A stretch of 64,000 nt of DNA, taken from assembly GCA_943846675.1 (NCBI GenBank), contig OX044357.1, positions 1,546,010 to 1,610,009 on the forward strand, read 5' to 3'. Shown here one piece after another: positions 1,703 to 30,160 of the stretch. The notes under the pieces were generated by a model. That model did not search any database. It saw nothing but the letters and a program-made list of their open reading frames with translations, and had not been told where the DNA came from. The position numbers and the translations under genes are program-made. This DNA comes from an uncultured Bacteroidia bacterium. GTDB lineage: Bacteria; Bacteroidota; Bacteroidia; NS11-12g; UBA9320. The number at the start of each line of letters is the position of its first letter. The first letter of the stretch is position 1.

Positions 1703-1752
1703 AATGCTGAATTATAACGGTAACAATGAAAAACAAAAACAGTACCAATAAT

Positions 1753-2841: not shown

Positions 2842-2987
2842 ATGGAGAGGTAACGTGTATTAATGCGATTTGGTGTTATGTAATAGACAAATGTATTGTT
2901 AAAATGGTTGTACGAGGAGTATGAAGTATTAAGATGAAGATTTAACCTTGACAGAAATGCATTGCATTACTTACATTATGCGTCATT

Positions 2988-3075
2988 CAGGCAATAGGAA
3001 TTAGCGAATAGCCAATAGCGAATAGCGATTAGGAGTTAGCTGTTAGCTGTTAGCCAAAAAGAACAGAGAGTAAAG
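2988..3075. repeat. low-complexity intergenic repeat tract (AATAGCG / TTAGG / AGAGAATAGA units); related tract at 21090..21230
   Basis: aattagcgaatagccaatagcgaatagcgattaggagttagctgttagctgttagcc...agagaatagac shares 12- to 18-mers (attaggagttag, agccaatagcgattagg, aagagaatagaN) with 21090..21230. Confidence 0.6.
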
Positions 3076-3409
3076 AGAATAGACTTGATTATCCCTAGCA
3101 GGTAGGGGGAATCAGATTGTTATCGAACTTTTAAATCTGAGGTCTACAATCTATTTTGAGCGTTTTAAATAACACAGTAAAGAAATAATATTAAAAGATG
3201 GTAATAGTTATGAGAACATGATTAGTCTAACTACATTCTCACTATATCGGTGGCGCTTGAACATTGAAGTAGTTTCCAAAGACAAATGTAAAGATTTAGT
3301 AACTTGCCATAGTTAATGCAACAGAAGCTGCAACAGAACCAGAGCGGAATTTAGTGTTACTATATCTATTAAAATTTGTTAGTTTGCGTCAATATTAACG
3401 TAAAATCCA

Positions 3410-6394
3410 ATGCAAAAAACGTACTTATTTATTTTACTAGCATCTTTATGCTTTCTTTCCTTTGAAACACAAGCAACCGTAATATTTGTAGACTATAGTT
3501 CTTCGGGTACTAATACTGGTGCATCCTGGACCAATGCTTACACGAGTCTTCAGTCTGCTGTTACTAATGCGGTTAGCGGAGATGAAGTATGGGTAGCCGC
3601 AGGCACATACATTCCATCTGCATATCCAGTAGGGCGAACATCTACAGATATTCGAGAGTATTCTTTTTACCTTGAGTCTGGTGTGGAGTACTACGGAGGA
3701 TTTGCAGGTACAGAAACACTAAGATCTCAACGCGATTATGCGAATAATGCCACCGTTTTGAGTGGAAATATTACAGGTAACAACTGTTACCATGTTTTGG
3801 TATCGGCTAATGAAAGCTCTGTGGTTTTAGACGGTTTTACCGTTACCGCTGGATATGCCAACGGTGGTACAAACGCAACAATAAATGGTCAATCAGGTTT
3901 TTGGACTAATAATGGAGGTGGTGTTTTCACGATTAACACCACGATGACCGTAGAGAATTGTATCATATCCAATAACACAGCTGGTTATGGTGGTGCAATT
4001 CGAGGTGTAGGGGGTACCACAACACTTACAAATTGTACACTTACTGGTAATACTGGGACTGCTCATGCGGGTGCAATAGATATGGTTGGTACTCTAGTTG
4101 TAAGTGGCTGCACATTTACCAGTAACAAGACAGCTACTAGCAGCAACGGAAATGGGGGAGCAATAAAAATTTCTGGGGGTGTTGCTACAATTTCAAATAC
4201 ATCATTTATAAGTAATGTAGGAAGAATCGGTGGTGCCATACATCATTACAGTTCGCAACTAACCATATCAACGTCTACCTTTAGTAATAATTCCGCAACA
4301 AATCATGGTGGAGCTTTATATGCTAGTCATACAGCATTTACTGTAACGAAGTGTGTTTTTGATGGAAATACTGCTACAAACAATGGTGGGGGTATCTCCA
4401 CAGGTTGGGGAGCTACTATGACTCTCAATAACTCTGTATTTAGTGAAAACACCTCTGGGTCAAGTGGAGGAGCTATCTCCAATGATATGATTAATGGTTC
4501 AGCAATCAATTGTACGTTTTATGCGAATACTGCAGCTGTTAGGGGTGGTGCTTATTCTTCAGTTTCAAACAGTATCAATGGCAAGAACTGTGTGTTTTTT
4601 GGAAACAAAAAGGGTACAAGCACGAACGTATCAGGTGCAGATACGTATGGTGGATCATTCACCTATTCTTTAACGCAAAGCAATAGCAACTTCAGCAGTG
4701 GAACAGGTATTGTAAACAATCAAGACCCATTATTCATCAATGCAAGTGACCCAGATGGAGCAGATAATGTATGGATGACGGCAGATGATGGATTAAGTTT
4801 TTTTAGCAATTCTCCTGCTTACGGTGTAGGAACAAGCTCAGGCGCTCCTTCTACCGATATTACGGGTGCTTCACGAGCGTCATCTCCATCTATGGGAGCC
4901 TATGAAGGTTTTTCTTACACGCGGTATTTAGTAGATATTGACGCTACGGGCACCGGTGCAGGTACAAGTTGGACTAATGCCTATACAGGGCTTCAAGACG
5001 CTATAGATGCATCCTCAGTAGGGGATGAAATATGGGTCGCAGAAGGTACATATATACCCAATGTAATTCCTCAATTTCAGGTTACATCTACCGACAATAG
5101 ACATAAAACATTTGCCATAAACAAAAATATAGCAATTTATGGTGGATTTGATGGTACTGAATCCGTCCTATCGCAAAGGGACGCTAAATTAAACATTACT
5201 GTATTAAGCGGAGATCTTGGAACTATTGGTACAGTATCAGATAATTGCTTCCATGTTGTGATGACTGCTAATTTAAATTCAACTGCAATCATCGATGGAT
5301 TTACAATTCAAGATGGTAATGCAAACGGAGGTAACACAACAGATCAGTATGGTGGTAGAAACTTTGCAAGAGAACTAGGAGGGGGAATTGCTAGCAATTT
5401 TTCTTCACCTACTCTTTCCAATCTAATCATCAAAAACAATAGGGCAAAAATTGGAGCAGGTGTCAGTAACAGCGTTTCCAGTTCATATCTTATTAATTTA
5501 ACTTTCGTAGACAATATTGCTAATGAAAAAGGAGGGGGAGTAGCTAATATAACTACTGGATCTCCAAGTATTATTAATTGTGTTTTTAGTGGGAACCTAG
5601 CTGATGATTTTGGTGGTGGTATATACTCTGAAAACTCACCTACAATAACCAATTGCACCTTTTTCAATAACAAAGCAACTACCACTTCACAAGGCGGTGG
5701 TGGTGTATATGCAATAAATGCAGGAACTACTACGGTATCAAATTGTATATTTTTTGGAAATAAAATAGGCTCATCTACGACTAATGTTGGTTCAGATATT
5801 AAAAACGGTACTGGTCATACAACCACTGTAGACTACAGTATGGTACAACTTGCTAGCGGAAGTTATACCTCTGGAAACACCAATGCCCTCACATCTGCAA
5901 CCAGTATGGTCTATAACCAAGACCCATTATTCAGCGGTCATGGTGGTCCAGATGGAGTAGATAATGTATGGATGACTGAGGATGACGGACTCAGATTAAA
6001 TAGTAATAGCCCTGCAGTAGATGCGGGACTTAGTAGTGCCATAAGTGGGTATTCTACAGATATTGTAGGTACTGCTCGTGTGGTGAATACTAACGTAAAT
6101 ATGGGAGCTTATGAGGTTCTTTGTTCTGAAACGACTAAAACAATAACAGCAAATGTATGCGATAGCTACACCTCTCCAAGTGGAAAGACTTGGATAACAA
6201 GCAACACGTATTCAGATACGATAGCAAACACTGCGGGTTGTGATAGTGTTATCACGGTGAACCTTACGGTTCGCGATAAGACGACTGAAACGATAACAGC
6301 AAATGTATGCGATAGCTATACCTCTCCAAGTGGAAAAACTTGGACAACAAGCAACACGTATTCAGATACCATTCCAAACGACTGCGGGTTGTGA
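3410..6394 (+). CDS. N-terminal ORF piece of the frameshifted giant beta-helix protein (signal peptide, two Pmp-like beta-helix blocks, 2-Cys modules)
   Basis: 994-aa ORF. It carries repeated GGAI / CTFTSN / CVFDGN / SVFSEN motifs and two copies of the block-ending motif NQDPLF...DGxDNVWMTxDDGL...MGAYE. It terminates at CGL*, where the paralog reads on as NTAGCDS. Confidence 0.7.
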   Translation: MQKTYLFILLASLCFLSFETQATVIFVDYSSSGTNTGASWTNAYTSLQSAVTNAVSGDEVWVAAGTYIPSAYPVGRTSTDIREYSFYLESGVEYYGGFAGTETLRSQRDYANNATVLSGNITGNNCYHVLVSANESSVVLDGFTVTAGYANGGTNATINGQSGFWTNNGGGVFTINTTMTVENCIISNNTAGYGGAIRGVGGTTTLTNCTLTGNTGTAHAGAIDMVGTLVVSGCTFTSNKTATSSNGNGGAIKISGGVATISNTSFISNVGRIGGAIHHYSSQLTISTSTFSNNSATNHGGALYASHTAFTVTKCVFDGNTATNNGGGISTGWGATMTLNNSVFSENTSGSSGGAISNDMINGSAINCTFYANTAAVRGGAYSSVSNSINGKNCVFFGNKKGTSTNVSGADTYGGSFTYSLTQSNSNFSSGTGIVNNQDPLFINASDPDGADNVWMTADDGLSFFSNSPAYGVGTSSGAPSTDITGASRASSPSMGAYEGFSYTRYLVDIDATGTGAGTSWTNAYTGLQDAIDASSVGDEIWVAEGTYIPNVIPQFQVTSTDNRHKTFAINKNIAIYGGFDGTESVLSQRDAKLNITVLSGDLGTIGTVSDNCFHVVMTANLNSTAIIDGFTIQDGNANGGNTTDQYGGRNFARELGGGIASNFSSPTLSNLIIKNNRAKIGAGVSNSVSSSYLINLTFVDNIANEKGGGVANITTGSPSIINCVFSGNLADDFGGGIYSENSPTITNCTFFNNKATTTSQGGGGVYAINAGTTTVSNCIFFGNKIGSSTTNVGSDIKNGTGHTTTVDYSMVQLASGSYTSGNTNALTSATSMVYNQDPLFSGHGGPDGVDNVWMTEDDGLRLNSNSPAVDAGLSSAISGYSTDIVGTARVVNTNVNMGAYEVLCSETTKTITANVCDSYTSPSGKTWITSNTYSDTIANTAGCDSVITVNLTVRDKTTETITANVCDSYTSPSGKTWTTSNTYSDTIPNDCGL

Positions 6395-6699
6395 TAGTGT
6401 TATCACGGTGAACCTTACGGTGAGATATAAAAGTTCCTTCTCGTTCGCAGAAACGGTATATGAAACCTTTACATCGCCAAGCGGAAAAACATGGACAAAT
6501 TCAGGCACATATTTAGACACAATACCTAATGACGTTAATTGTGACAGCATCATAACGGTCGATTTGACTGTAATCAACAAGTTATTTGTCGATACAGATG
6601 GTTCATCAGGAACAGGAAAATCATGGGGGACTTCAATGAAAACACCTAGATGACGCCATCAAAGTAGCTAATGCAACGGGCAATCATGCTGAAATATGG

Positions 6700-9048
6700 G
6701 TGCGCAAGGGCATGTATTATCCTGGCGGACAATCGAGCAGCAATCGAGATTCAGCGTTCCTAATTACCAATCCAAATGTTGAATTATTAGGAGGTTTTTC
6801 TGGAACAGAAACAGAGCCTGGTCAACGTAATCAAACGGCTAACCCAACCATATTGTGTGGTGATATTGGCAAAGCAAACGATTCCTCGGATAATGCATAT
6901 CACGTATTGATTATTGCACCAAACGGATCAGACATCGGACCTAATTTTAAACTAGATGGGTTAACCTTTAAAAACGGTAACGCTGACGGGAACTCAAAAT
7001 ACACCTACGAAAATAGAGATGTATATCAATCAGAGGGTGGCTCAATAGTTATTCTGGGTAGTGGTAAGTCTGGCCAAGAGATTAGTCCAACGATTACCAA
7101 TTGTCATTTTGAAGGCAACTACGGCGATTATGGCTCGATTTACATACGCGTGCCTAATGGTAAGTCTTTTGCAACCATTAGCCATTGTACGTTTAAAAAC
7201 AACCATTCAATTTATGGCGCTATCTTTAACGATGGTCAAGCAGGTGAAGTATCTCCAAACATTGTAAACTGTGCCTTTGATGGCAACACAAGTGCCACTT
7301 CGGGTGCAGCGATATACAACTATGGTTATGGAGGCAAATGCTCTCCTACAATCACAAGTTGTGTGTTTAACAGCAACAGTGCTAGTTCAATGGGAGGAGC
7401 AATCTATAACACGGGTTATGGTGGAACATCCAATCCAGTGATCACAAACGCTACCTTCCATGCAAACGCAGCTGGTTCTCATGCAGGAGCGATGTATAGC
7501 TTTGGTAACAGCGGAACATGCCAACCTAAGGTGACCAACTCTATCTTTTACAAAAACACAAAAGGTGGAGATGTGGACCATAAGTTTAGTGAGTTCTATA
7601 ACTATGCAGCGTATCCATACATAAAAAATAGTTCGATGCAACGTGCAAGCTCAACATACACAGCAAGCACATTCAACAGCTTAAACAGCGGAACAAACAA
7701 CATCTTCCAGACCAATCCAAACTTTGAGGCGATTGCCGATGGCAATGGTGCGGATGATGTTTGGAGAACAGGAGATGATGGATTGAGATTATCTTCCTCA
7801 AGTACCAACTTGTTAAACGGTGGAACCAATACAGGTGCCCCAACTGCGGATATCTTAGGAAATCAGCGTATGGGAACAACCGACATGGGTGCTTACGAGT
7901 ATGTCAACTGTGGCTTAAATGTTAAACTAGCTACTTCGGTTACCACTCATACAGCAACGCAAAGTGTTGTGGATGGTAATTTTGTATGCTACTGTAACAG
8001 CGACAATGAATTACTCTTGGCTCTTGACACCAATGGAACTGGGGCGGTGATTACACCTAGTCAGGTAAAACTATACATTGGCAATCCATCAACCTTGAGT
8101 TACAACTCTGCTGGCGGTATGATAACCAACACGGCTGGTGGTGTGATACTAGAAAGACGTTGGGATGTGGAACCAACGACTCAACCAACTTCACCAGTAA
8201 CGGTTCGTTACTTCTACACCAACGACAACTACGACGACATTGTAACGGCTATGGCTGGATTAACATCGCCTACAACCATTACTTCGCCAAGTCAACTACA
8301 GTTTTACAAGGTAACAGGCGGCTCATCGGCAACCTTCCCGAACCCACATGATACGGGTGTAACGGGTATTGTACTGACCAACGGAACAACAGCCAGCACA
8401 ACAGTGTGGGTTAATGGAACACATGGTGTACAAGACCATACAGCAGAATACCTAGTAAGCACGTTCTCCGGTGGTGGAGGCGGAGGCGGGGGTGGATCTA
8501 GCCCACTACCAGTGGAACTGATCCAGTTCGAAGCAAGCCCAGCAGCTAGTCATACAGCAGACCTTACATGGAAGACCGCATCAGAGCTAAACAACTCACA
8601 TTTTGTAGTTGAACGTAGCTATGATGGTAGAGACTTCCAGGCAGCAGCAATTGTTCAAGGAAACGGTACCACACAAAACGTGATTACCTACAACCACAAC
8701 GACAATACGATTGATCTAGCACAAAACACTGTGTTCTATCGATTACGTCAGGTGGACTTTGATGGCACCACGGCTTACTCACCAGTAAGACGAGTAGACT
8801 TTGAAGGCAGCATCATACCAAACAGCGTAACGCTTTATCCAAACCCAACAAAAGGAACGGTTACGGTTAGCTTTACAGACGATGAGGCTGAAAGTCATGC
8901 GATTAAAGTAATTGACAACCTCGGAAGAGAGCTGTACAAGCAAACCTTCGACGGACAAGCCATAGAGCTTGATTTGTCGAGCCAAGCAACGGGCATCTAC
9001 TTTATCATTTTAGATTCTGGTGAATCCTTTAAAGTGATTAAACAGTAG
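6700..9048 (+). CDS. C-terminal ORF piece of the same frameshifted gene (beta-helix block, FN3/Ig-like domain, T9SS sorting domain); about 99% identical to 15486..17834
   Basis: 782-aa translation is nearly identical to the last 782 aa of the 2133-aa paralog. It ends in a G9 linker plus LYPNPTKGTVTVSF...IYFIILDSGESFKVIKQ, a T9SS type-A CTD. Confidence 0.7.
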   Translation: MRKGMYYPGGQSSSNRDSAFLITNPNVELLGGFSGTETEPGQRNQTANPTILCGDIGKANDSSDNAYHVLIIAPNGSDIGPNFKLDGLTFKNGNADGNSKYTYENRDVYQSEGGSIVILGSGKSGQEISPTITNCHFEGNYGDYGSIYIRVPNGKSFATISHCTFKNNHSIYGAIFNDGQAGEVSPNIVNCAFDGNTSATSGAAIYNYGYGGKCSPTITSCVFNSNSASSMGGAIYNTGYGGTSNPVITNATFHANAAGSHAGAMYSFGNSGTCQPKVTNSIFYKNTKGGDVDHKFSEFYNYAAYPYIKNSSMQRASSTYTASTFNSLNSGTNNIFQTNPNFEAIADGNGADDVWRTGDDGLRLSSSSTNLLNGGTNTGAPTADILGNQRMGTTDMGAYEYVNCGLNVKLATSVTTHTATQSVVDGNFVCYCNSDNELLLALDTNGTGAVITPSQVKLYIGNPSTLSYNSAGGMITNTAGGVILERRWDVEPTTQPTSPVTVRYFYTNDNYDDIVTAMAGLTSPTTITSPSQLQFYKVTGGSSATFPNPHDTGVTGIVLTNGTTASTTVWVNGTHGVQDHTAEYLVSTFSGGGGGGGGGSSPLPVELIQFEASPAASHTADLTWKTASELNNSHFVVERSYDGRDFQAAAIVQGNGTTQNVITYNHNDNTIDLAQNTVFYRLRQVDFDGTTAYSPVRRVDFEGSIIPNSVTLYPNPTKGTVTVSFTDDEAESHAIKVIDNLGRELYKQTFDGQAIELDLSSQATGIYFIILDSGESFKVIKQ

Positions 9049-9091
9049 TGAGAAAGTATCGTATTACTACACAAATACAATAAGAGAAGGC

Positions 9092-9122
9092 CATTCGTTT
9101 TACGGATGGCTTTTTTGTTGTT
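9092..9122 (+). terminator. rho-independent terminator downstream of giant gene 1 (identical copy at 17878..17908)
   Basis: ggccattcgttttacggatggcc is a stem-loop with one U-G wobble, followed by tttttt, about 45 nt after the stop codon. Confidence 0.6.
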
Positions 9123-9319
9123 CAATTGATTTGAAAATATAAAAAGTGAAGTAAACAAGATATCGGGTTCTGTTGCATTAACTTCCCCTGAATCCAGAAG
9201 TAACCAAATTCGATGTTTATTAAGCTGCTAAAGACTTAAATGTAGCAAACCAGTTTGACTTTGAATCTTTGATTTGGTCCTTTCTGTTGATGCAATCTAA
9301 AGGACAGAACCATAAATAA

Positions 9320-9469
9320 ACTTTTTCGCTTAATGACATAACAGTTGACCATGTGATACCATTGAGTGATATAAGCGACTATGATTTAAAGAAAGGGGCA
9401 CACACATGGGACAACGTTAAAACGTGTTGCATGGGTTGTAATACCCTTAAAGGGACTGACTTTGTATAA
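9320..9469 (+). pseudogene. remnant C-terminal fragment of an HNH endonuclease (no start codon)
   Basis: Translation is TFSLNDITVDHVIPLSDISDYDLKKGAHTWDNVKTCCMGCNTLKGTDFV*. It keeps the HNH signature (DH..P, N, CxxCN..KG) but is only about 49 codons long, with an upstream in-frame stop and no ATG. Confidence 0.5.
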
Positions 9470-9936
9470 ATATACACCCCAGCCCCCATTTCAAACATCC
9501 ATAGACAAGGCATGAGAAACGCAGCAATCTGTTATTTACACACGTGCAAGTTCAAAAAAAAGCCAAGTAGAGAAAGTCCAGTAAAGTAAAGGTCTAAAAG
9601 CGGTTATTGTCGACTATATGTAACCACATTAAAAAACAACTCCTAGATTATTGAAGAATTGCTTTGCAATTTGAGTGGTAACTAACAAAGATAAACTGCC
9701 GCAAATCCCTTGACAGGTAAGGGTTCGTTGAAATTTTAGACACAAAAAACCCCGACTTGGTACAGCCAGGGAATTTCGTTTAGCTCCGAAGAGCTAGTAG
9801 GGGGAATCAGAACGTTATCGAACTTTTTTGACGGTACAAAGGCCCGGCTATAAAATGTTGGGTAACGTTTAGGTTGGTTAGCCATGCATATTAGCCCTGT
9901 AAGGTGCTATGCACTAATTAAATTGTTATTTCAACT

Positions 9937-10272
9937 TTAGTACATTAAATGCTTTTTAGAACTTTCCTTCCACTGTGCTTTGTAGCTTGCATCTACGAAG
10001 AAGATTTTCAAATCTGCTTTATAAGCTGCATCCACGAAATATATTTTCTTTTTTGCCTTGTGAGCTGCATCTGTAAAAAACCATCTACCATTGTTATCTT
10101 CAGCCATATATGCTGCATCAACTTTGTAAACCAAAAGATCAGCTTTATATGCTGCGTCCACAACATAAACTTTAACATCCGCTTTGTAATCAGCATCTAC
10201 AGAATATATTAACTGGGCTTTAACGCTTGCACTAGCAATTAAAAGGGTTGTAATTAGGATTAATTTTTTCAT
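9937..10272 (-). CDS. small secreted protein made of tandem YKAD decapeptide repeats
   Basis: 111 aa. Signal peptide MKKLILITTLLIASASVKAQ, then about 7 repeats of x[VF]Y[VF]VDA[AS]YKAD[VL]K (VDADYKADVKVYVVDAAYKADLLVYKVDAAYMAED...IYFVDAAYKADLKIFFVDASYKAQWK). The conserved 19-bp motif sits 13-31 nt upstream. Confidence 0.55.
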   Translation of the reverse strand: MKKLILITTLLIASASVKAQLIYSVDADYKADVKVYVVDAAYKADLLVYKVDAAYMAEDNNGRWFFTDAAHKAKKKIYFVDAAYKADLKIFFVDASYKAQWKESSKKHLMY

Positions 10273-10805
10273 ATTGTTTCTTTTGGGTTCTGTTGCATTA
10301 ACTAGGGCAATTTACTATATCTTTAGATTTGAAATTAAAAACGACTTTAATGTTCAACCGTCACAGATATCCAAAATCAATAATTCTTCAAGCTGTTTAC
10401 TTTAAACTAAGATTTACAAAACAATATAGTTCAAAGACCGATTCTGTCGGATAATAACTCAAATAACCCACTGGGTTTTTCTACTATTCAAACTCCCATT
10501 GTAGCGGTTCATTAGTTGCATGTGAAATGGTTTCAAGTTTTGGGAAAACATAAGGCATCAGTTTAATCAAAAGCTCTATTCTTTGCTTTGGTTCCAACTC
10601 TTCGAGTCTTTCCTCAATATTCTCCAATTCCTACACATATCCCTCTATATACCAAGCTATCAATATCTTAAGTTGATAGCTGCTAATTTTTAAAACTAAT
10701 AGACTTAATGCCCTTAAGACACTGTCCAATGTTACTCTTTGTTTTTACAATAAATTTCTGCTTTGCAGAGTCCGAGTGAACATTTTATATGGCGTTTCTT
10801 ATACT

Positions 10806-11336
10806 TCAGAAATTTAACTGACTCTCCCAAGGAGGATTGAATTCTTTTACTCTTTTCATAGTACAATTTGGTCCAATCCAAATAACATAAGATAGCCCCG
10901 CTTGTAATTGGTTTCTGGTTCTATTCTGCAAGTAAGAGATATCAAAAATAAAGCGGTCATAACTACCTTTAATCCCAATTTTAGGAAGAATAGTGTAACT
11001 TTTTGTGTTTTCTCGGCTTGTTCGCTCCAATTGAGCTCCTAATACAGGAGTAAAACGATGTGCAACGTAGGCATGGTGCCAAGCTAATACGTTAAACTCT
11101 CCATTTATAAAAAAAGTAGAGAAGTCTTTATCATTCGAAAAAAGCACACCAGTATTTACAGCATACCTTAGATGCGAAAGACTCATTTTTGGGCCTGTTT
11201 GAGAAAAAGTGTTATTACTTAAACCTATTTGGTGTGAAATACCAGCAGATAGCATTTCGGATTTAAGTATCTGAGCTTTCAATTGATTAGCTGATAAAAT
11301 TAAGCACGTTATCAATATTATTTTTCTTGGATTCAT
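10806..11336 (-). CDS. small outer-membrane beta-barrel-like protein (hypothetical)
   Basis: The most probable start is MNPRKIILITCLILSANQLKAQ (signal peptide), 27 nt inside the tracked ORF. The protein has alternating amphipathic segments, aromatic residues, and a C-terminal ...SQLNF ending in Phe, as in OM beta-barrels. Confidence 0.45.
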   Translation of the reverse strand: MNPRKIILITCLILSANQLKAQILKSEMLSAGISHQIGLSNNTFSQTGPKMSLSHLRYAVNTGVLFSNDKDFSTFFINGEFNVLAWHHAYVAHRFTPVLGAQLERTSRENTKSYTILPKIGIKGSYDRFIFDISYLQNRTRNQLQAGLSYVIWIGPNCTMKRVKEFNPPWESQLNF

Positions 11337-11432
11337 CCCTTTGGTAACGTTTAGCAAATACAATTATTGTTTTTTGTAAATTGCTGGTATTAAAAGAATA
11401 GAGTTTTTAATAAACATCAATTTTTTTTACTT

Positions 11433-14400: not shown

Positions 14401-17400
14401 GAAAAATAACTGCATCAGGTGTGGTCAGCACCCTCGCTGGTAGTACTCAGGGCTATGCAGATGGTACAGGGACATCGGCTAAGTTTAACGTTCCTTTCGG
14501 AGTAGCGGTCGATGGCGCTGGAAATGTGTATGTAGCGGATTACAATAACCACCGCATTCGAAAAATAACTACATCAGGTGTGGTCAGCACGCTCGCTGGT
14601 AGTACATATGGCTATACAGATGGTACAGGGACATCGGCTCAGTTTGCCTATCCTTATGGAGTAGCGGTCGATGGCGCTGGAAATGTGTATGTAGCGGATA
14701 GGTCAAACCACCGCATTCGAAAAATAACTGCATCAGGTGTGGTCAGCACGCTCGCTGGTAGTTCTCAGGGCTATACAGATGGTACAGGGACATCGGCTAA
14801 GTTTTACTATCCTAGCGGAGTAGCGGTCGATGGCGCTGGAAATGTGTATGTAGCGGATCGGTCAAACCACCGCATTCGAAAAATAACTGCATCAGGTGTG
14901 GTCAGCACCCTCGCTGGTAGTACATATGGCTATACAGATGGTACAGGGACATCGGCTAAGTTTTACTTACCTACAGGAGTAGCGGTCGATGGCGCTGGAA
15001 ATGTGTATGTAGCGGATTACGTTAACCACCGCATTCGAAAAATAACGTTAAGTGCTGGTAGTGCTGAAACAACAGAAACGATAACAGCAAATGTATGCGA
15101 TAGCTATACCTCTCCAAGTGGAAAAACTTGGACAACAAGCAACACGTATTCAGATACGATTCCAAACACTGCGGGTTGTGATAGTGTTATCACGGTGAAC
15201 CTTACGGTGAGATATAAAAGTTCCTTCTCGTTCGCAGAAACGGTATATGAAACCTTTACATCGCCAAGCGGAAAAACATGGACAAATTCAGGCACATATT
15301 TAGACACAATACCTAATGACGTTAATTGTGACAGCATCATAACGGTCGATTTGACTGTAATCAACAAGTTATTTGTCGATACAGATGGTTCATCAGGAAC
15401 AGGAAAATCATGGGGGACTTCAATGAAAAACCTAGATGACGCCATCAAAGTAGCTAATGCAACGGGCAATCATGCTGAAATATGGGTGCGCAAGGGCATG
15501 TATTATCCTGGCGGACAATCGAGCAGCAATCGAGATTCAGCGTTCCTAATTACCAATCCAAATGTTGAATTATTAGGAGGTTTTTCTGGAACAGAGACAG
15601 AGCCTGGTCAACGAAATCAAACGGCCAATCCAACCATATTGTGTGGAGATATCGGTACAACAAACGATTCCTCTGACAATGTATACCACGTATTGATTAT
15701 TGCACCAAACGGATCAGACATCGGACCTAATTTTAAACTAGATGGGTTAACCTTTAAAAACGGTAACGCTGACGGGAACTCAAAATACACCTACGAAAAT
15801 AGAGATGTATATCAATCAGAGGGTGGCTCAATAGTTATTCTGGGTAGTGGTAAGTCTGGTCAAGAGATTAGTCCAACGATTACCAATTGTCATTTTGAAG
15901 GAAATTATGGCGATTATGGCTCGATTTACATACGCGTGCCTAATGGTAAGTCTTTTGCAACCATTAGCCATTGTACGTTTAAAAACAACCATTCAATTTA
16001 TGGCGCTATCTTTAACGATGGTCAAGCAGGTGAAGTATCTCCAAACATTGTAAACTGTGCCTTTGATGGCAACACAAGTGCCACTTCGGGTGCAGCGATA
16101 TACAACTATGGTTATGGAGGCAAATGCTCTCCTACAATCACAAGTTGTGTGTTTAACAGCAACAGTGCTAGTTCAATGGGAGGAGCAATCTATAACACGG
16201 GTTATGGTGGAACATCCAATCCAGTGATCACAAACGCTACCTTCCATGCAAACGCAGCTGGTTCTCATGCAGGAGCGATGTATAGCTTTGGTAACAGCGG
16301 AACATGCCAACCTAAGGTGACCAACTCTATCTTTTACAAAAACACAAAAGGTGGAGATGATGACCATAAGTTTAGTGAGTTCTATAACTATGCAGCGTAT
16401 CCATACATAAAAAATAGTTCGATGCAACGTGCAAGCTCAACATACACAGCAAGCACATTCAACAGCTTAAATAGTGGAACAAACAACATCTTCCAGACCA
16501 ATCCAAACTTTGAGGCGATTGCCGATGGCAATGGTGCGGATGATGTTTGGAGAACAGGAGATGATGGATTGAGATTATCTTCCTCAAGTACCAACTTGTT
16601 AAACGGTGGAACCAATACAGGTGCCCCAACTGCGGATATCTTAGGAAATCAGCGTATGGGAACAACCGACATGGGTGCTTACGAGTATGTCAACTGTGGC
16701 TTAAATGTTAAACTAGCTACTTCGGTTACCACTCATACAGCAACGCAAAGTGTTGTGGATGGTAATTTTGTATGCTACTGTAACAGCGACAATGAATTAC
16801 TCTTGGCTCTTGACACCAATGGAACTGGGGCGGTGATTACACCTAGTCAGGTAAAACTATACATTGGCAATCCATCAACCTTGAGTTACAACTCTGCTGG
16901 CGGTATGATAACCAACACGGCTGGTGGTGTGATACTAGAAAGACGTTGGGATGTGGAACCAACGACTCAACCAACTTCACCAGTAACGGTTCGTTACTTC
17001 TACACCAACGACAACTACGACGACATTGTAACGGCTATGGCTGGATTAACATCGCCTACAACCATTACTTCGCCAAGTCAACTACAGTTTTACAAGGTAA
17101 CAGGCGGCTCATCGGCAACCTTCCCGAACCCACATGATACGGGTGTAACGGGTATTGTACTGACCAACGGAACAACAGCCAGCACAACAGTGTGGGTTAA
17201 TGGAACACATGGTGTACAAGACCATACAGCAGAATACCTAGTAAGCACGTTCTCCGGTGGTGGAGGCGGAGGCGGGGGTGGATCTAGCCCACTACCAGTG
17301 GAACTGATCCAGTTCGAAGCAAGCCCAGCAGCTAGTCATACAGCAGACCTTACATGGAAGACCGCATCAGAGCTAAACAACTCACATTTTGTAGTTGAAC

Positions 17401-17834
17401 GTAGCTATGATGGTAGAGACTTCCAGGCAGCAGCAATTGTTCAAGGAAACGGTACCACACAAAACGTGATTACCTACAACCACAACGACAATACGATTGA
17501 TCTAGCACAAAACACTGTGTTCTATCGATTACGTCAGGTGGACTTTGATGGCACCACGGCTTACTCACCAGTAAGACGAGTAGACTTTGAAGGCAGCATC
17601 ATACCAAACAGCGTAACGCTTTATCCAAACCCAACAAAAGGAACGGTTACGGTTAGCTTTACAGACGATGAGGCTGAAAGTCATGCGATTAAAGTAATTG
17701 ACAACCTCGGAAGAGAGCTGTACAAGCAAACCTTCGACGGACAAGCCATAGAGCTTGATTTGTCGAGCCAAGCAACGGGTATCTACTTTATCATTTTAGA
17801 TTCTGGTGAATCCTTTAAAGTGATTAAACAGTAG
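11433..17834 (+). CDS. giant T9SS-secreted surface protein: NHL-repeat arrays + 2-Cys modules + Pmp-like beta-helix + FN3/Ig-like + T9SS type-A CTD
   Basis: 2133 aa with a signal peptide. It has about 19 copies of a 47-aa NHL repeat (SGVVSTLAGS..GYTDGTGTSA.F..P.GVAVDGAGNVYVAD..NHRIRKIT) in three blocks separated by a Cys-rich Ig-like segment and 2-Cys TITANVCD[ST]YTSPSG modules. The C-terminal 930 aa match 6125..9048 apart from the two single-base insertions in that copy, and end in LYPNP...IYFIILD...KVIKQ. Confidence 0.85.
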   Translation: MDLRFQKFKSQNLSSIMKSFYVARLTAVLFSIICFSFSNTVAQSSGVVSTLAGSGASGYTDGTGTSAQFSYPIGVAVDGAGNVYVADQNNHRIRKITTSGVVSTLAGSGTSGNADGTGTSAQFNNPYGVAVDGAGNVYVADYNNHRIRKITASGVVSTLAGSTQGNTDGTGTSAQFNSPRGVAVDGAGNVYVADEYNHRIRKITASGVVGTLAGSASGYTDGTGTSAKFKNPYGVAVDGAGNVYVADRSNHRIRKITTSGVVSTLAGSSQGYTDGTGTSAQFYYPSGVAVDSAGNVYVADKDNHRIRKITTSGVVSTLAGSGTSGYADGTGTSAKFNYPFGVAVDGAGNVYVADYVNHRIRKIGQATCTTPTTPSLSASPDSICNGNSSTLTVSGSKNAASTWKVYSGGCGTGLVDSITGTGTTLSVSPTSTTNYYVREEGCVTAGSCGTTVVTVTAASYNTITVTVCDTYTSPSGRHTWFVTGIYKDTIPNAAGCDSILTINLTVIATPIVTVSTLAGSTYGYTDGTGTSAKFYNPTGVAVDGAGNVYVADRYNHRIRKITTSGVVSTLAGSGTSGNADGTGTSAQFSYPSGVAVDSAGNVFVADRNNHRIRKITASGVVSTLAGSTQGYTDGTGTSAKFDSPTGVAVDGAGNVYVADLYNHRIRKITASGVVSTLAGSASGYTDGTGTSAKFKNPTGVAVDGAGNVYVADYNNHGIRKITTSGVVSTLAGIAYGYTDGTGTSAKFKNPYGVAVDGAGNVYVADRDNHRIRKITTSGVVSTLAGSSQGYTDGTGTSAQFAYPFGVAVDGTGNVYVADESNHRIRKITLSAGSAETTETITANVCDTYTSPSGRHTWFVTGIYKDTIPNAAGCDSILTINLTVIATPIVTVSTLAGSTQGNTDGTGTSAQFSYPTGVAVDGAGNVYVADQDNHRIRKITTSGVVSTLAGSGTPGYTDGTGTSAKFYLPIGIAVDGAGNVYVADRSNHRIRKITASGVVSTLAGSTQGYADGTGTSAKFNVPFGVAVDGAGNVYVADYNNHRIRKITTSGVVSTLAGSTYGYTDGTGTSAQFAYPYGVAVDGAGNVYVADRSNHRIRKITASGVVSTLAGSSQGYTDGTGTSAKFYYPSGVAVDGAGNVYVADRSNHRIRKITASGVVSTLAGSTYGYTDGTGTSAKFYLPTGVAVDGAGNVYVADYVNHRIRKITLSAGSAETTETITANVCDSYTSPSGKTWTTSNTYSDTIPNTAGCDSVITVNLTVRYKSSFSFAETVYETFTSPSGKTWTNSGTYLDTIPNDVNCDSIITVDLTVINKLFVDTDGSSGTGKSWGTSMKNLDDAIKVANATGNHAEIWVRKGMYYPGGQSSSNRDSAFLITNPNVELLGGFSGTETEPGQRNQTANPTILCGDIGTTNDSSDNVYHVLIIAPNGSDIGPNFKLDGLTFKNGNADGNSKYTYENRDVYQSEGGSIVILGSGKSGQEISPTITNCHFEGNYGDYGSIYIRVPNGKSFATISHCTFKNNHSIYGAIFNDGQAGEVSPNIVNCAFDGNTSATSGAAIYNYGYGGKCSPTITSCVFNSNSASSMGGAIYNTGYGGTSNPVITNATFHANAAGSHAGAMYSFGNSGTCQPKVTNSIFYKNTKGGDDDHKFSEFYNYAAYPYIKNSSMQRASSTYTASTFNSLNSGTNNIFQTNPNFEAIADGNGADDVWRTGDDGLRLSSSSTNLLNGGTNTGAPTADILGNQRMGTTDMGAYEYVNCGLNVKLATSVTTHTATQSVVDGNFVCYCNSDNELLLALDTNGTGAVITPSQVKLYIGNPSTLSYNSAGGMITNTAGGVILERRWDVEPTTQPTSPVTVRYFYTNDNYDDIVTAMAGLTSPTTITSPSQLQFYKVTGGSSATFPNPHDTGVTGIVLTNGTTASTTVWVNGTHGVQDHTAEYLVSTFSGGGGGGGGGSSPLPVELIQFEASPAASHTADLTWKTASELNNSHFVVERSYDGRDFQAAAIVQGNGTTQNVITYNHNDNTIDLAQNTVFYRLRQVDFDGTTAYSPVRRVDFEGSIIPNSVTLYPNPTKGTVTVSFTDDEAESHAIKVIDNLGRELYKQTFDGQAIELDLSSQATGIYFIILDSGESFKVIKQ

Positions 17835-17877
17835 TGAGAAAGTATCGTATTACTACACAAATACAATAAGAGAAGGC

Positions 17878-17908
17878 CATTCGTTTTACGGATGGCTTTT
17901 TTGTTGTT
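17878..17908 (+). terminator. rho-independent terminator (duplicate of 9092..9122)
   Basis: Identical hairpin plus T-run within the duplicated cassette. Confidence 0.6.
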
Positions 17909-18043
17909 CAATTGATTTGAAAATATAAAAAGTGAAGTAAACAAGATATCGGGTTGGTGAAAGTATTTACGGATATAAGTTGGTTTAAGACCAGTAGCTA
18001 GTTACGAATACTAGTTTTATATATTACTAACGCGTAATATTAT

Positions 18044-19015
18044 TTGTATATTCGCTTTATGGAGTTCAAACCCCTTGAATCATATCTATCTGATCCTAGT
18101 CCTTACACAAGCCGTAGACTCGTGGAACAGTTGGGTGAGGAAAAGTTTACCATTAATGACATAGGCGTTAGTTCACGGGTGTTTACCCATTGGCGATCAA
18201 ATGGGTTAATCCCTTATATGGAGGATGGTTCATGGGTAAAATTGAATGTGTTTCAATTTATCTGGGTACAGATAATTAAAGACTTGCGTGCGTTTAACTT
18301 TTCTTTAAAGCAGATTGTCAAAGTACGCGCTTCGCTATTTGAGTCCTTCGAAGGGTTTGCTACGGCGGATTTGTTTGATAAAAAAGGAAAGATAACCAAG
18401 GTATTGCGAGCACAGCTTAAAAAGATGTTCGACAATCACCAAGAGATAATTGAAGGCTTAGAAAGTAGTTTCGAGTCGGATTCAAATTCAATAAAAGATT
18501 TCCTTGAGGCTTTTCAAATCCCATTGCTCCTATCACTTAGCTTGAACGTATTGTTCCGTGCAATGGATCACACGCTACTGATTAGGCCAGATGGTCGAGT
18601 TGATTATACTTCAGAAACGCAAGACGAGACATTGGTCAATTACTTGTCCGAGCACGATGCGGAGTCCATCTTGGTGCTTCCACTCAAAAAGTACATTCTG
18701 GTGCTGGTATCGACAAAAAAACTAGAAGATAAAGTTGGTAATATGGCCCTGGTTACCCAAGTTGAAATGGAAGTTTTACAAGCCATGCGGCAGGGAACGC
18801 TATCCGAACTTAGAATAATTTTTGACCCCAAAGACCAACACGCAGATTTGGTGTATACCTATAAAGGGGTTGTACCCGAAAATGAAATGAGTAAAGTTTT
18901 AGATCGTTTTCGGCATAAAAAACACGTTCAATTGTCTATGAAAACCAATGACGGTAAAACGGTATCTTTCGAATACCAAGACCGAAAACGGGTCCATAAA
19001 TTAAATGGAAATTAA
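18044..19015 (+). CDS. MerR/excisionase-like winged-HTH protein with a C-terminal domain of unknown function
   Basis: 323 aa. The N-terminus (TINDIGVSSRVFTHWRSNGLIPY...VKLNVFQFIWVQIIKDLRAFNFSLKQI) matches the MerR/Xis HTH_17 pattern. The remaining roughly 230 aa have no recognisable motif. It sits immediately upstream of the iterons and the serine recombinase. Confidence 0.5.
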   Translation: MYIRFMEFKPLESYLSDPSPYTSRRLVEQLGEEKFTINDIGVSSRVFTHWRSNGLIPYMEDGSWVKLNVFQFIWVQIIKDLRAFNFSLKQIVKVRASLFESFEGFATADLFDKKGKITKVLRAQLKKMFDNHQEIIEGLESSFESDSNSIKDFLEAFQIPLLLSLSLNVLFRAMDHTLLIRPDGRVDYTSETQDETLVNYLSEHDAESILVLPLKKYILVLVSTKKLEDKVGNMALVTQVEMEVLQAMRQGTLSELRIIFDPKDQHADLVYTYKGVVPENEMSKVLDRFRHKKHVQLSMKTNDGKTVSFEYQDRKRVHKLNGN

Positions 19016-19100
19016 TTGATAATTAATTCAGATTAATTGATAATAAACTCGGATTAATTGATAATTAATTCAGATTAATTGATAATAAACTCGGATTAAT
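19016..19100. repeat. tandem 41-bp iterons rich in ATTAAT(N5)ATTAAT palindromes
   Basis: ggattaattgataattaattcagattaattgataataaactc is repeated about 2.3 times and contains at least 6 copies of TTAATTGAT. It lies between the MerR-like gene and the recombinase gene. Confidence 0.7.
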
Positions 19101-19235
19101 TGATTTTTAAATGGAAATTAATGGACAAAAAGAGGTGTAGATGCAGTAATGACAAGGCATTGAAGAACTCAAGCCAATTAAATACGGGTTCATTAGAAAC
19201 GGAAACACCGCTAATGGGCATACTCCAATTGAGTT

Positions 19236-19379
19236 ATGTCAGAAAAGTCAAAACAAGGACTTACAATACAAGAATTAAAAACCTATAGCGGATTTGAAAA
19301 ACTAAGTGAGAAGGAATTAGAACAAGCGCTTCGATTTATTGAGTTGATGAGTGAGGTGCTTATTGAAACATTGAAATAA
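19236..19379 (+). CDS. possible small ORF (47 aa, helical) upstream of the recombinase; a speculative RDF/Xis-like candidate
   Basis: MSEKSKQGLTIQELKTYSGFEKLSEKELEQALRFIELMSEVLIETLK* ends 8 nt before the recombinase start. There is no homology evidence, and it overlaps the tracked ORF 19100..19288 in another frame. Confidence 0.25.
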   Translation: MSEKSKQGLTIQELKTYSGFEKLSEKELEQALRFIELMSEVLIETLK

Positions 19380-19386
19380 AAGAATA

Positions 19387-21015
19387 ATGCAGCATGTAGA
19401 TCAACAATTGGCAGTCTTTGCCAAAGGGCAAAAGAACAACAAAGGGAAGGCCATTACAGCGGTCATGTATACCCGTGTATCGACCAAGGAACAGGCCGAT
19501 AACAATCAGAGTCTCTTTACGCAAGCAAAGCACATCAAGCAATTTGCAATGAACAATGATTTGCAGATAATAGGGGAATTTGGTGGGACTTATGAAAGCG
19601 CCAAGAGTGATGAACGGGTTCAGTTCAAACAAATGATTGCCTTTGTCAAAAGACATAAGGTAGATGCCATTGTGGTATACTCGATGGATCGCTTTTCAAG
19701 AAGTGGTCCCAATGCTATTTACATTTCAGAACAACTCAGAAAGATAGGTACTGAGATTATATCTGTAACCCAACCTGTAGACGCCTCTACAGCTGCTGGG
19801 GAATTGCAACAGGGAATTTACTTTATGTTCTCACAATATGAGAATCAGCAAAGGCGCTTAAAGTCCATGGCGGGCACCCGTGAAAAGCTATTACAAGGAC
19901 ATTGGGTTACCAAACCACCCTTAGGGTACAAGAAGATCACAGAAGGTGGACAAAAGAAAATAGTCATCACAAAAGAAGGTAGATTGCTGGCAGCAGCATT
20001 TAGAAGAAAGATTAAGTACAACTACGAATTTACTGAAATTAGTAAGTGGCTGTCAACAAGAGGTCTAAAGGTGAGTCATAAAAGATTATCTGAGTTATGT
20101 AGAAACGTATTTTATTGCGGTTTCATGGCCCATCAGGCATTAAATGGAGAGATTGTAAAGGGCAATCATGAAGGACTCATCACACGTAATGAGTTCTTGA
20201 AGCTGAATGGCATGCTTCAAATCAGACCTGCCAAAAAGCCAAAATCAAAAATGTTGGATCATCTACCCTTAAAGAGGCACATGCATTGCTCAAAGTGCAG
20301 CAAACCAATGACGGGTTACTTTGTGCGACCAAAGAAGTTATATTACTACAAGTGCAATACGAAAGGTTGTAAAGTCAATAGAAGTGCTAAGGTGTTAAAC
20401 CGAAACTGGGAACAGACGCTTTCCAATCTTCAGATAGATGCAAAATACGTTACACCCATCCAAGAACAGCTCAAACGAAAGCTCGAAAGCTTAAAAGAAG
20501 ACTCTGGTGATGGGCTAAAACAGTATCGCAGTAACAAAACAAAGGTTGAGAGGAAGATAGAGATGTTGGAAGAACGATTTGTAATAGGAGAAATTACCAA
20601 AGACTTATTTGATAAGTACGCTGCTAAATATAGAGAAGAATTGGTGGCAATATTAGAAGAAATCGACAAATGTGGAATTTCATTATCGAACCCTGATCAG
20701 GTAATCAAGCAGGCCACTGATTTGATGTCTAAACTTCAGAAAACCTGGCAGTTATCAAAATCAACAGAAAGATCAAAGTTGCTTAAAGCGGTCTACCCAA
20801 GCGGAATTTGGCTTGATCCTGAAAATAACAGTTATCGAACTTTTGGTTTGAACCCAGCGGTGCGCTGTATCCTAGATATAACGGGGAAATCCGTAGAAAA
20901 GGAAAAGCGGAATAGTGAAGATAAACTCACATATTCCGCTTTGGTAGCCCCTAGGGGAATCGAACATAGCTTCGTATCATTCGCTGGAGCTAATATACCT
21001 ATTTTAACATTTTAA
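19387..21015 (+). CDS. large serine recombinase (resolvase catalytic domain + recombinase domain + zinc-ribbon)
   Basis: 542 aa. It carries the catalytic motif VMYTRVSTKEQ...SMDRFSRSG (resolvase/invertase N-terminal domain), a long recombinase domain, a Cys-rich zinc ribbon (CSKCSKPMTGYF...YYYKCNTKGC) and a C-terminal coiled-coil. Confidence 0.85.
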   Translation: MQHVDQQLAVFAKGQKNNKGKAITAVMYTRVSTKEQADNNQSLFTQAKHIKQFAMNNDLQIIGEFGGTYESAKSDERVQFKQMIAFVKRHKVDAIVVYSMDRFSRSGPNAIYISEQLRKIGTEIISVTQPVDASTAAGELQQGIYFMFSQYENQQRRLKSMAGTREKLLQGHWVTKPPLGYKKITEGGQKKIVITKEGRLLAAAFRRKIKYNYEFTEISKWLSTRGLKVSHKRLSELCRNVFYCGFMAHQALNGEIVKGNHEGLITRNEFLKLNGMLQIRPAKKPKSKMLDHLPLKRHMHCSKCSKPMTGYFVRPKKLYYYKCNTKGCKVNRSAKVLNRNWEQTLSNLQIDAKYVTPIQEQLKRKLESLKEDSGDGLKQYRSNKTKVERKIEMLEERFVIGEITKDLFDKYAAKYREELVAILEEIDKCGISLSNPDQVIKQATDLMSKLQKTWQLSKSTERSKLLKAVYPSGIWLDPENNSYRTFGLNPAVRCILDITGKSVEKEKRNSEDKLTYSALVAPRGIEHSFVSFAGANIPILTF

Positions 21016-21089
21016 TTTCCAGCACCTTGGGTCTTACGGCTTTTCCGAGGTTACCCTTCGAAAATTACTGAAGGGTTAAAAAGGGGGAT

Positions 21090-21230
21090 TTAGGATTTAG
21101 GAATTAGGAGTTAGGGGAGGAGAGGAAAGAGAAAAGAGAATAGAGAAAAGACCTTACTAATCTGCCAATAGCTAATAGCCAAAAGCCAATAGCGATTAGG
21201 GATCGCCTAAATGAATAGAGAAAATAGATT
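21090..21230. repeat. low-complexity TTAGG / AGAGAAnAGAG / AATAGC repeat tract related to 2988..3075
   Basis: gggggatttaggatttaggaattaggagttaggggaggagaggaaagagaaaagagaatagagaaaag...gccaatagctaatagccaaaagccaatagcgattaggg. Confidence 0.6.
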
Positions 21231-21342
21231 TAAGAGATTAAGTCTAAAATTTCTCAATACTTTATACTTATATATCCCTTCTCCGTTAATAACTTTTACT
21301 CCAAACAAATTATTAGAACTTTGGGTTTGCTATTTTTGAATT

Positions 21343-30119: not shown

Positions 30120-30160
30120 TGGGCTGAAGGATTGAAGGATTGAAGGATTGAAGGATTGAA
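30120..30160. repeat. (GGATTGAA)n octanucleotide microsatellite, about 4.5 units
   Basis: ggattgaaggattgaaggattgaaggattgaaggatgg lies directly after the priA stop, between convergent genes. Confidence 0.8.

Follow-up and report, generated by a model that had tools for sequence, protein, structure and literature searches.

The DNA between a DUF1573 gene and ruvB in the chromosome of an uncultured Bacteroidia bacterium (GTDB lineage NS11-12g; UBA9320) is accessory, and its mobility is due to a large serine recombinase (LSR) encoded at its right edge. Coordinates refer to the window, a stretch of 64,000 nt from contig OX044357.1 (assembly GCA_943846675.1). The accessory DNA spans 17.8 kb, with a TAG core at either end (3103-3105 and 20945-20947), and lies between two chromosomal flanks that stand outside it: the DUF1573 gene on the left (1753-2841, minus strand; Pfam DUF1573, 9.6e-54) and ruvB on the right (21343-22368, plus strand; Pfam RuvB_N, AAA_lid_4 and RuvB_C). 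A first-pass annotation made from the sequence alone had proposed a recombinase-mobilised segment at this position, and its accessory nature is borne out by identical ends at many different flanks and by its absence from the same locus of a sister species. The single island of about 18 kb that had been envisaged is replaced by a composite, in which two tandem units of one family are joined and a complete 11.15-kb unit B stands behind a recombinase-less unit A. The reading of this DNA as a composite LSR-moved island, built from two tandem units, directed to tRNA 3′ ends and loaded with adhesin-like cargo, is given a probability of about 0.8.

Unit B (9798-20947, 11.15 kb) encodes a DUF6150 protein, a small outer-membrane-like protein, a giant NHL-repeat protein of the type IX secretion system (T9SS), a 318-aa MerR-like protein, a 47-aa protein and the 542-aa LSR. 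Unit A (3103-9797) begins with the same left-end sequence, which is found twice in the window (3103-3128 and the internal copy 9798-9823), and carries giant gene 1; it lacks the module formed by the 318-aa, 47-aa and recombinase genes. Complete relatives of unit A exist at two other loci (L118 and L105; loci on other contigs are designated by L numbers). Numerous contigs with over 99% identity to the window were reached by exact-protein look-ups. Three loci (L122-L124, about 400-11562) are collinear with window positions 9796-20948 over 11.15 kb at 97.2-98.3% identity, with unrelated DNA on their left and tRNA-Met on their right, while L119 starts at the equivalent of 9797 and ends at tRNA-Glu. 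Because these loci hold unit B end to end at other flanks, it is a discrete element.

Three attachment (att) sites can be delineated, all on the plus strand. The attL of the composite island (3090-3128) consists of a B arm ending in ...CCCTAGCAGG, the TAG core at 3103-3105 and a P′ arm GGGGAATCAGATTGTTATCGAAC from 3106; identity between L105 and the window starts at 3101. The internal attL of unit B (9732-9823) has its B arm at 9732-9797, its core at 9798-9800 and its P′ arm from 9801, and collinearity of the window with L122-L124 and L119 starts exactly at 9796/9797. This B arm bears a terminator, resembles DNA downstream of a tRNA and is 82% like the left flank of an island at the tRNA-Glu locus (L121). 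The attR (20925-20965) is made of a P arm ending in ...CACATATTCCGCTTTGG, the core at 20945-20947 and a B′ arm CCCCTAGGGGAATCGAAC at 20948-20965. The B′ arm reads as the reverse complement of the tRNA-Glu(UUC) 3′ end and diverges thereafter, so that the target in the window is a tRNA-Glu fragment of 18 nt (21 nt if the core is counted). The right-edge position of the recombinase, which had been pointed out as the usual layout beside a core gene, is confirmed, and the sequence targeted there is a tRNA 3′ end. A tRNA search found no intact tRNA in the window, and the link was recognised only after comparison of recombinase C-terminal tails; an intact tRNA-Glu occupies the attR-equivalent position in L116-L121.

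The same ends recur at unrelated places. The P arm CACATATTCCGCTTTGG plus TAG is followed by one of six different right flanks, most of which recur across several independent samples: the window/ruvB site (10 loci), tRNA-Glu (6), tRNA-Met (4), a tRNA-Met fragment with a tyrosine-integrase element (3, one of them from JGI), yitT (8, from ENA, JGI and Logan) and a second tRNA-Met variant (L125). ARAGORN places tRNA-Glu(UUC) or tRNA-Met(CAU) antisense to the recombinase open reading frame (ORF), overlapping its last 41-44 nt (L116-L121; L122-L125 and L132). The left end, TAG followed by GGGGAATCAGA(A/T)(C/T)GTTATCGAAC, likewise comes after six different left flanks, and most of these carry a minus-strand terminator, as expected downstream of a tRNA.

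At three loci (L126, 2970-4292; L127; L128) the tyrosine-integrase element is inserted in tRNA-Met beside the LSR island and leaves an 18-nt tRNA-Met 3′ fragment. These loci parallel the tRNA-Glu fragment of the window, with a split tRNA and a similar 18-nt relic beside the recombinase. A second LSR, P0006 (54% identical, with copper/metal-resistance cargo), lies directly upstream of a similar tyrosine-integrase element (L129-L131) on contigs without an intact tRNA, and is recorded on the same 3.07-Mb contig as the exact recombinase of the window.

One of the right flanks comes with a matching empty site. L105 was found via P0001, a 99%-identical recombinase with a different C-terminal tail. 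The insertion there breaks yitT at ...CCTTGTAG|GGCAAAAATGG, and the module, which adjoins an HD-domain gene, stops at the identical nucleotide; in L107 an uninterrupted yitT comes immediately after the HD gene. On its left side, the island at yitT has a junction (L105, 1480-1540) that reads GAAGTGCTTTGGTAG|GGGGAATC. Its left flank has 10 nt (GCTTTGGTAG) in common with the element's own right end and is not the rest of yitT, which suggests a further element or an array to the left.

The arrangement of the arms is informative about the reaction. Relative to the core, the motif ATCGAAC is shifted outward by 5 bp in the P′ arm compared with both tRNA B′ arms; taking AG as the centre and presumed crossover dinucleotide places it at half-site positions 18-24 (P′) versus 13-19 (B′). 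The zinc-ribbon-domain motif of the Listeria integrase occupies positions 16-24 in attP versus 11-19 in attB (PMC3783163). The att geometry therefore supports, by analogy, a canonical attP × attB reaction with a putative crossover in TAG. The attP reconstructed from the junctions is ...ATTCCGCTTTGG-TAG-GGGGAATCAGA(A/T)(C/T)GTTATCGAAC..., with a predicted junction sequence of ATTCCGCTTTGGTAGGGGGAATCAGA(A/T)(C/T)GTTATCG. The predicted empty sites would read CCCTAGCAGGTAGCCCCTAGGGGAATCGAAC for the whole island and GAAGAGCTAGTAGCCCCTAGGGGAATCGAAC for unit B alone.

The recombinase (19387-21015, plus strand, 542 aa) matches Pfam Resolvase PF00239 (8.7e-26) and Recombinase PF07508 (27.3 bits, cut-off 21.1), with PF13408 precomputed on many of its homologs; its best library match is a phage integrase family, the PHROG 95 integrase (5.4e-70). 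Residues R30 and S32 (in YTRVSTKEQ) are invariant across 10 homologs, as are the zinc-ribbon cysteines C301, C304, C323 and C328 in the recombinase alignment. With regard to the directionality-controlling coiled-coil insertion in the zinc-ribbon domain of serine integrases, residues ~350-440 appear by eye to be rich in charged heptad-like sequence. Most copies are full-length with intact catalytic residues, and the protein is an intact, integrase-type enzyme. It does not reach the equivalog cut-off of its best NCBIfam model, XisF (98.2 bits vs 375), nor those of CcrA, CcrB and CcrC (71, 61 and 44 bits vs 900, 700 and 900).

Codons 1-520 of this gene belong to the island, and the last 22 codons are contributed by host DNA antisense to the tRNA-Glu fragment, the final 68 nt of the ORF being host sequence. 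The 90% cluster of the recombinase contains near-identical proteins with eight different C-terminal tails after ...YSALV, several of which are the antisense translation of a tRNA 3′ end. The tail depends on the site because the ORF reads through attR.

Comparison with a sister species bears on both the origin of the locus and the movement of the island. This species was found by a RuvB protein search; its RuvB is 96% identical and its core DNA 71-75% identical to the window. Two syntenic blocks are kept, GCS2...HtrA-DUF1573 and ruvB-queG-DUF389...PriA, and the spacer between them measures either 3.96 kb (a tyrosine integrase and two small T9SS proteins) or 2.1 kb (a DUF6770 gene). These alternatives are found at L133/L134 (6305-9841) and in L139/L140. 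None of the window's island genes occurs in the sister-species spacer. Because the sister species keeps both blocks with only a short spacer of other content, the DUF1573 and ruvB flanks are ancestral neighbours, and the spacer between them is a hot spot for different kinds of accessory DNA. An empty site with the DUF1573 gene directly beside ruvB, which had been suggested as a check, was not found in that exact form; in the sister species the two genes are 2.1-4.0 kb apart, without island genes. Nor is the gene order of the window a conserved one free of recombinase-associated variation, as the giant genes are missing from this locus in the sister species. In a collection of species-representative genomes, RuvB identity reached only 72-80% in the best matches, and the gene order left of ruvB was not preserved.

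Elsewhere on the 1.0-Mb contig that holds its ruvB locus, at tRNA-Met, the sister species does carry a unit B-type island (L124, L134). This copy and the window agree at 98.3%, against a difference of 25-29% between the core DNA of the two species. A similar disparity is seen in the host of L105, where the island module is 99.5% identical to that of the window and the HD protein is only 80% identical to the copy on the 3.07-Mb contig carrying the window's exact recombinase. Because the island is 98% identical where core DNA is only 71-75% identical, it probably moved recently, by horizontal transfer, between related marine Bacteroidota species.

Low-complexity heptamer tracts stand close to both ends of the island and had been taken for its boundaries. 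The left tract (2988-3090) contains AATAGCG (×5.7), GTTAGCT (×2.9) and AGAGAATAGA, and was delineated with Tandem Repeats Finder (TRF) and motif enrichment; the right tract (21086-21230, TRF) contains GGATTTA, AGAGAAA and GCCAATA arrays. TRF places the tandem arrays proper at 2993-3054 and 21086-21193. That the tracts are real and related, and enriched only at these two sides, is well supported: AATAGCNAATAGC occurs six times, confined to the two sites, against 0.3 expected, and the tracts have stretches of 43-55 nt in common at 73-79% identity. Heptamer arrays are also rare elsewhere in ~280 kb of related sequence. The tracts lie within 13-140 bp of the true junctions, the left TAG core being 13 bp right of the last stretch that the left tract has in common with the right one (ending at 3083, where the first-pass annotation gave 3075) and the right TAG core ~140 bp left of the right tract. 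On these grounds one could regard the AATAGC/TTAGG/AGAGAATAGA tracts as the termini or att sites of a single ~18-kb island on which the recombinase acts, a view that now deserves next to no credence. Every comparison breaks at the TAG cores (3103-3105, 9798-9800 and 20945-20947) and not in the tracts, and the segments common to the two tracts occur in permuted order. As an island-linked feature the tracts are ruled out, since they are absent from the ends of every other copy. The left tract is conserved in 10 of 10 DUF1573 contexts. The right tract is unchanged in four recombinase-less strains with identical RuvB (L002, L004, L006 and L007); in these, the match to the window sets in at 20944, within the recombinase ORF and 72 nt from its 3′ end. 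The sister-species spacer, too, holds a related TCAGGAC/AGAGAAAATAGA low-complexity tract. Because they are retained without the recombinase and a related tract exists in the sister species, the two tracts are best read as halves of one heptamer-rich intergenic host spacer that was split by the insertion.

Another way to account for the variation would be to see the locus as a plasticity zone without present-day site-specific mobility, in which the recombinase is a fossil, and in which flanks, strain types and rearranged copies (such as L019 and L001) arose from homologous recombination among the repeated giant-gene modules together with deletion or replacement by IS6-family elements. Copies or remnants of IS6 do lie at breakpoints (18080 in the type B strains described below; 20488-21246 in L001; 3244, 9219 and 10285 in the window), near-identical repeats of ~2.9-5.9 kb are available, L018 and L019 join giant 1 directly to the region downstream of giant 2, and no attP form was found. 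What this explanation does not account for is the recurrence of six right and six left unrelated flanks at the same trinucleotide, the yitT insertion with its matching empty site and the 98% identity across species whose core DNA differs by 25-29%; it also sits poorly with a recombinase that is full-length and catalytically intact in most copies, and it is judged unlikely. The PHROG 95 match of the recombinase (5.4e-70) and an HNH-nuclease fragment in the region could instead recall a degraded prophage or integrative conjugative element of which only the integrase end survives, the giants being resident chromosomal genes. Such an origin is very improbable: more than 10 island copies contain no phage structural, replication or conjugation genes, and IMG/VR viral contigs contain no viral relative of the recombinase. 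Moreover, recombinase and giant gene move together, enclosed by the same pair of ends, at unrelated loci and in other species; the giant gene is therefore cargo and not a resident.

Several observations nevertheless weigh against the composite LSR-moved island. Six constructed attP-form recombinase sequences had no exact match in a collection of 15 billion proteins, and attP DNA was absent from JGI metagenomes, a weak negative given that circles rarely assemble; the excised circular form that had been proposed as a check thus did not surface in either resource. The exact empty attB of the DUF1573-ruvB locus was not found in JGI metagenomes either, and each contig of this species that was read has the island or a type B replacement. 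In type B strains, unit A is shared up to 18080 and is followed by an IS6 element and a different giant gene running to the same TAG, which goes beyond simple integration and excision; the junction resembles an unoccupied B-TAG-B′ site but adjoins other accessory DNA. The island encodes no transfer functions. Tandem units are not a direct product of LSR attP × attB recombination, and the proposed reaction accounts for neither the origin of the junction between units A and B (9170-9797) nor that of the tRNA-Glu fragment. Finally, linkage across 6-11-kb repeats that are >99% identical can be chimeric in metagenome assemblies, which calls for caution with L019, L116 and L118.

For the composite LSR-moved island, the following mechanism is proposed. 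The recombinase would join attP to attB at the extreme 3′ end of a tRNA gene lying antisense to the recombinase gene, with crossover within the common TAG, equivalent to the discriminator and the final acceptor-stem bases of the tRNA. The P arm would supply CCA, so that the tRNA stays whole, and the recombinase ORF, running through attR, would have its last 3-22 residues rewritten at each site. In the window, the target would have been the 18-nt tRNA-Glu 3′-end relic in the heptamer-rich DUF1573-ruvB spacer. Unit B can probably be excised through recombination of the attL′ at 9798 with attR, whereas unit A, having lost its own module, could leave only together with B through attL 3103 × attR. 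Giant T9SS-secreted, adhesin-like cargo would thereby shuffle surface-protein repertoires within and between species. A route of cell-to-cell transfer is inferred; no gene for it is encoded by the island. Secondary rearrangement of the loci would come from homologous recombination that pairs ~5.9-kb near-identical modules in different copies, and from IS6 elements.

The cargo is dominated by two giant genes, whose earlier description as paralogs holds: their 3′ ~2.9 kb are 98-100% identical, so that a C-terminal portion of ~900 aa including the T9SS sorting domain is common to both. Giant gene 1, the cargo of unit A (3410-9048, plus strand), combines Pfam Chlam_PMP (beta-helix/PMP-type repeats) with Por_Secre_tail, the T9SS C-terminal sorting domain. 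It is frameshifted in the window by 1-nt insertions at 6380 and 6644 relative to an intact 1878-aa allele present in L015, L017, L019, L020 and L024. The two insertions enclose a 262-nt patch (6381-6642) that is 100% identical to giant 2 (15168-15429) and may be a gene-conversion tract or a sequencing error. Giant 1 is split at other positions in other contigs, which suggests long-read indel errors in some assemblies. Giant gene 2, the main cargo of unit B (11433-17834, plus strand, 2133 aa), contains 18 NHL repeats forming beta-propellers (Pfam NHL, 1.4e-156) with a repeat unit of 159 nt, followed by Por_Secre_tail (9.8e-12).

The smaller genes of unit B largely match what had been called by eye. 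The YKAD-repeat gene is a lipoprotein-like DUF6150 gene (9937-10272, minus strand; Pfam DUF6150, 6e-30) that is also present in the unit B copies L119 and L122-L124. The small outer-membrane protein corresponds to an ORF of 185 aa with a signal peptide (10806-11363, minus strand), divergent from giant 2; it has no family match in Pfam, NCBIfam or PHROG, and a 183-aa homolog adjoins the NHL giant in every unit B copy. A supposed minus-strand coding remnant near 10497-10640 does coincide with an ORF at 10484-10627 (minus strand), which has no family match; this small ORF is kept in every unit copy. Between the units lies debris (9219-9469) made of an IS6 end remnant (9219-9292; 87.8% identity to IS6 copies by blastn) and the HNH-nuclease fragment. 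The latter, noted before at 9320-9469, is weakly supported at 9353-9469 (Pfam HNH 21.0 bits, cut-off 21.4; PHROG endonuclease VII, 1.5e-5).

Further negative results concern gene content and composition. Among island ORFs scanned with Pfam, no match to relaxase, coupling-protein or type IV secretion families was obtained, and the same holds for the subsets scanned with NCBIfam and PHROG; an Rfam scan of positions 1-24000 at E <= 0.1 gave no match. Composition is uninformative for the mobility genes: the GC content at third codon positions (GC3) of the recombinase and 318-aa genes is 0.41 versus 0.384 +/- 0.031 in core genes, and a deviating GC3 is confined to the N-terminal part of giant 1 (0.27) and the 185-aa gene (0.28). 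The compositional discontinuity that had been suggested as a check at the borders does not discriminate.

Remnants of IS6 elements are scattered through both units. A segment at 10285-10417 is an IS6-family end remnant (84% to the IS6 ends in L002, L006, L018 and L001), and 3244-3326 is another, being an inverted copy of 10288-10370, which itself matches the IS6 end of L002, L018 and L001 at 84%. The L105 copy lacks the segment 3160-3371. The idea that giant 1 and the DUF6150 gene have a common upstream "leader" (3244-3326 vs 10288-10370) is ruled out, both stretches being IS6 end remnants. The IS6-family element is active in this population and encodes a 222-aa transposase (NCBIfam, 6.5e-73; L002, 170-904; L001, 9112-9905). 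In L001 an IS6 element replaces 20488-21246 and removes attR.

Past 18080, type B strains contain the IS6 element, a PorG-like gene, a 2213-aa FG-GAP/HYR giant and a terminator-bearing flank joined to the same TAG and tRNA fragment. In L004 the giant (1606-8247), which has a T9SS tail, is followed by a 216-aa weakly PorG-like protein (948-1598; NCBIfam, 9.7e-07), so that in type B, too, a giant surface protein and a small outer-membrane protein are paired at this locus. Comparison of the 216-aa protein with the 185-aa protein of unit B revealed no kinship. In a further class of copies, the recombinase stops after codon 53 and is joined to the end of a DsbD_2 gene (L019, 2046-2243; L116, 15448-15645; L118, 15450-15647), with an inverted copy of the island beside the tRNA-Glu/GAPDH/Nramp locus. 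Such fusions suggest that large inversions or deletions took place between copies of the island, or that the assemblies are chimeric. Away from the island, other short tandem arrays occur in the window at 30125-30168 and 39267-39308, namely TGAAGGAT (×5.5) and AATTAAA/AATTCAC heptamers; the TGAAGGAT array is conserved in L004.

The partner genes of the recombinase were also largely foreseen in the first-pass annotation, which had named a MerR/Xis-like helix-turn-helix (HTH) protein, iterons and an LSR at the right end. The 318-aa protein (18059-19015, plus strand) has no Pfam, NCBIfam or PHROG family match of its own, and is assigned a MerR-type HTH at the family level: 24 of 40 relatives match MerR_1, and the family profile matches MerR structures (3.8e-6). 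The family comprises 822 clusters at 50% identity, unannotated and mostly of 300-320 aa, with the HTH at the N-terminus and a conserved C-terminal motif (...KKHV.L..K..DGKT..EYQ.R.R). A 318-aa homolog adjoins the LSR in relatives that are 52-54% identical, making the protein a candidate directionality or regulatory factor. These relatives occupy the same kind of site with other cargo, copper/metal-resistance genes in one and S8 peptidase/T9SS genes in the other. Between the 318-aa gene and a 47-aa ORF lie 4.5 copies of a 21-bp iteron (19011-19104, TRF). Their number varies, with 2.5 copies in L118 (9667-9718), and the gene coordinates of L119 and L120 show the same 42-bp shorter iteron spacing as L118. 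The iterons were rejected as a conserved feature of the family, as the array is not kept in the 52-54%-identical members. Immediately before the recombinase gene, the 47-aa ORF (19236-19379, plus strand) is called in every close copy and has no NCBIfam or PHROG family match.

Serine integrases are prized genome-engineering tools that are believed to avoid tRNA genes. In the present data, independent junctions of one near-identical enzyme are numerous and involve two tRNAs, two tRNA fragments and one off-target gene; ready-made attP and attB sequences result from them. The data also indicate that giant repeat-rich surface proteins, which often mark strain-level "flexible" islands in marine Bacteroidota, may be movable between species as cassettes, and that multiple near-identical island copies may then drive chromosome rearrangement. 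For annotation, they account for an orphan tRNA fragment, a variable recombinase tail and low-complexity tracts that can be mistaken for island termini. A broader proposal would be that a family of tRNA-3′-end-targeting LSR islands, not described before, exists in marine Bacteroidota. Here, one enzyme would use several tRNAs (Glu and Met) via the T-arm motif GAATCGAAC, restore CCA and have its C-terminus rewritten by the target; the 318-aa protein would be a new class of directionality factor, and the islands would swap giant T9SS adhesins (in relatives, metal-resistance or protease genes) between species. Taken jointly, these statements are tentative and somewhat less probable than even.

The island belongs to none of the phage serine-integrase elements, the staphylococcal cassette chromosome (SCC) elements or the tycheposons, and has features in common with each. 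With the phage-type large serine integrases (Listeria A118/LI, Bxb1 and phiC31 class), it shares the resolvase and recombinase domains, the four-Cys zinc ribbon, and simple short sites with a small common core; the best match of the window enzyme is the PHROG 95 integrase. The 5-bp shift of a motif, here ATCGAAC, between attP-type and attB-type half-sites is also that of the LI integrase model (PMC3783163). It differs in that there is no phage, that the targets are the 3′ ends of at least two tRNAs, tRNA fragments and one off-target gene, and that the 3′ end of the integrase ORF contains the attP core, which makes the C-terminal tail site-dependent. One survey covered 297 serine-integrase elements; it predicted tRNA use in only 14 and described such use as previously unreported and in need of proof (PMC7192596). 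A further LSR, XisF, the excisase of the Anabaena fdxN element, likewise excises a chromosomal element and is the best NCBIfam model for the window recombinase. The score is 98 bits against a cut-off of 375, and no developmental gene is interrupted here.

The SCC elements (SCCmec, with Ccr recombinases) are brought into the comparison by partial matches of the NCBIfam CcrB, CcrA and CcrC models to the window recombinase. They are non-conjugative, LSR-moved cargo islands whose insertion at a conserved gene's 3′ end leaves that gene intact, and they form composite or tandem arrays with internal att copies, whose units can leave singly or together. The island resembles them in being an LSR-moved cargo island at a conserved-gene 3′ end, arranged as a composite array with internal att copies. 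In contrast to SCC, however, it has one recombinase and not a ccrAB pair, with Ccr model scores far below cut-offs (71 vs 900 bits), a tRNA target as opposed to rlmH, a Bacteroidota host and adhesin-like T9SS cargo. Like the tycheposons of Prochlorococcus, 27 of 937 of which use a large serine recombinase (bioRxiv 10.1101/2020.12.28.424599), it is a marine, cargo-carrying integrative element that targets tRNAs; such elements leave partial tRNAs, pile up in islands and decay there. The hallmark deep-branching tyrosine recombinase and replication genes (primase, helicase) of tycheposons are absent from this island, which belongs to another phylum and has the MerR-like 318-aa protein as its conserved partner.

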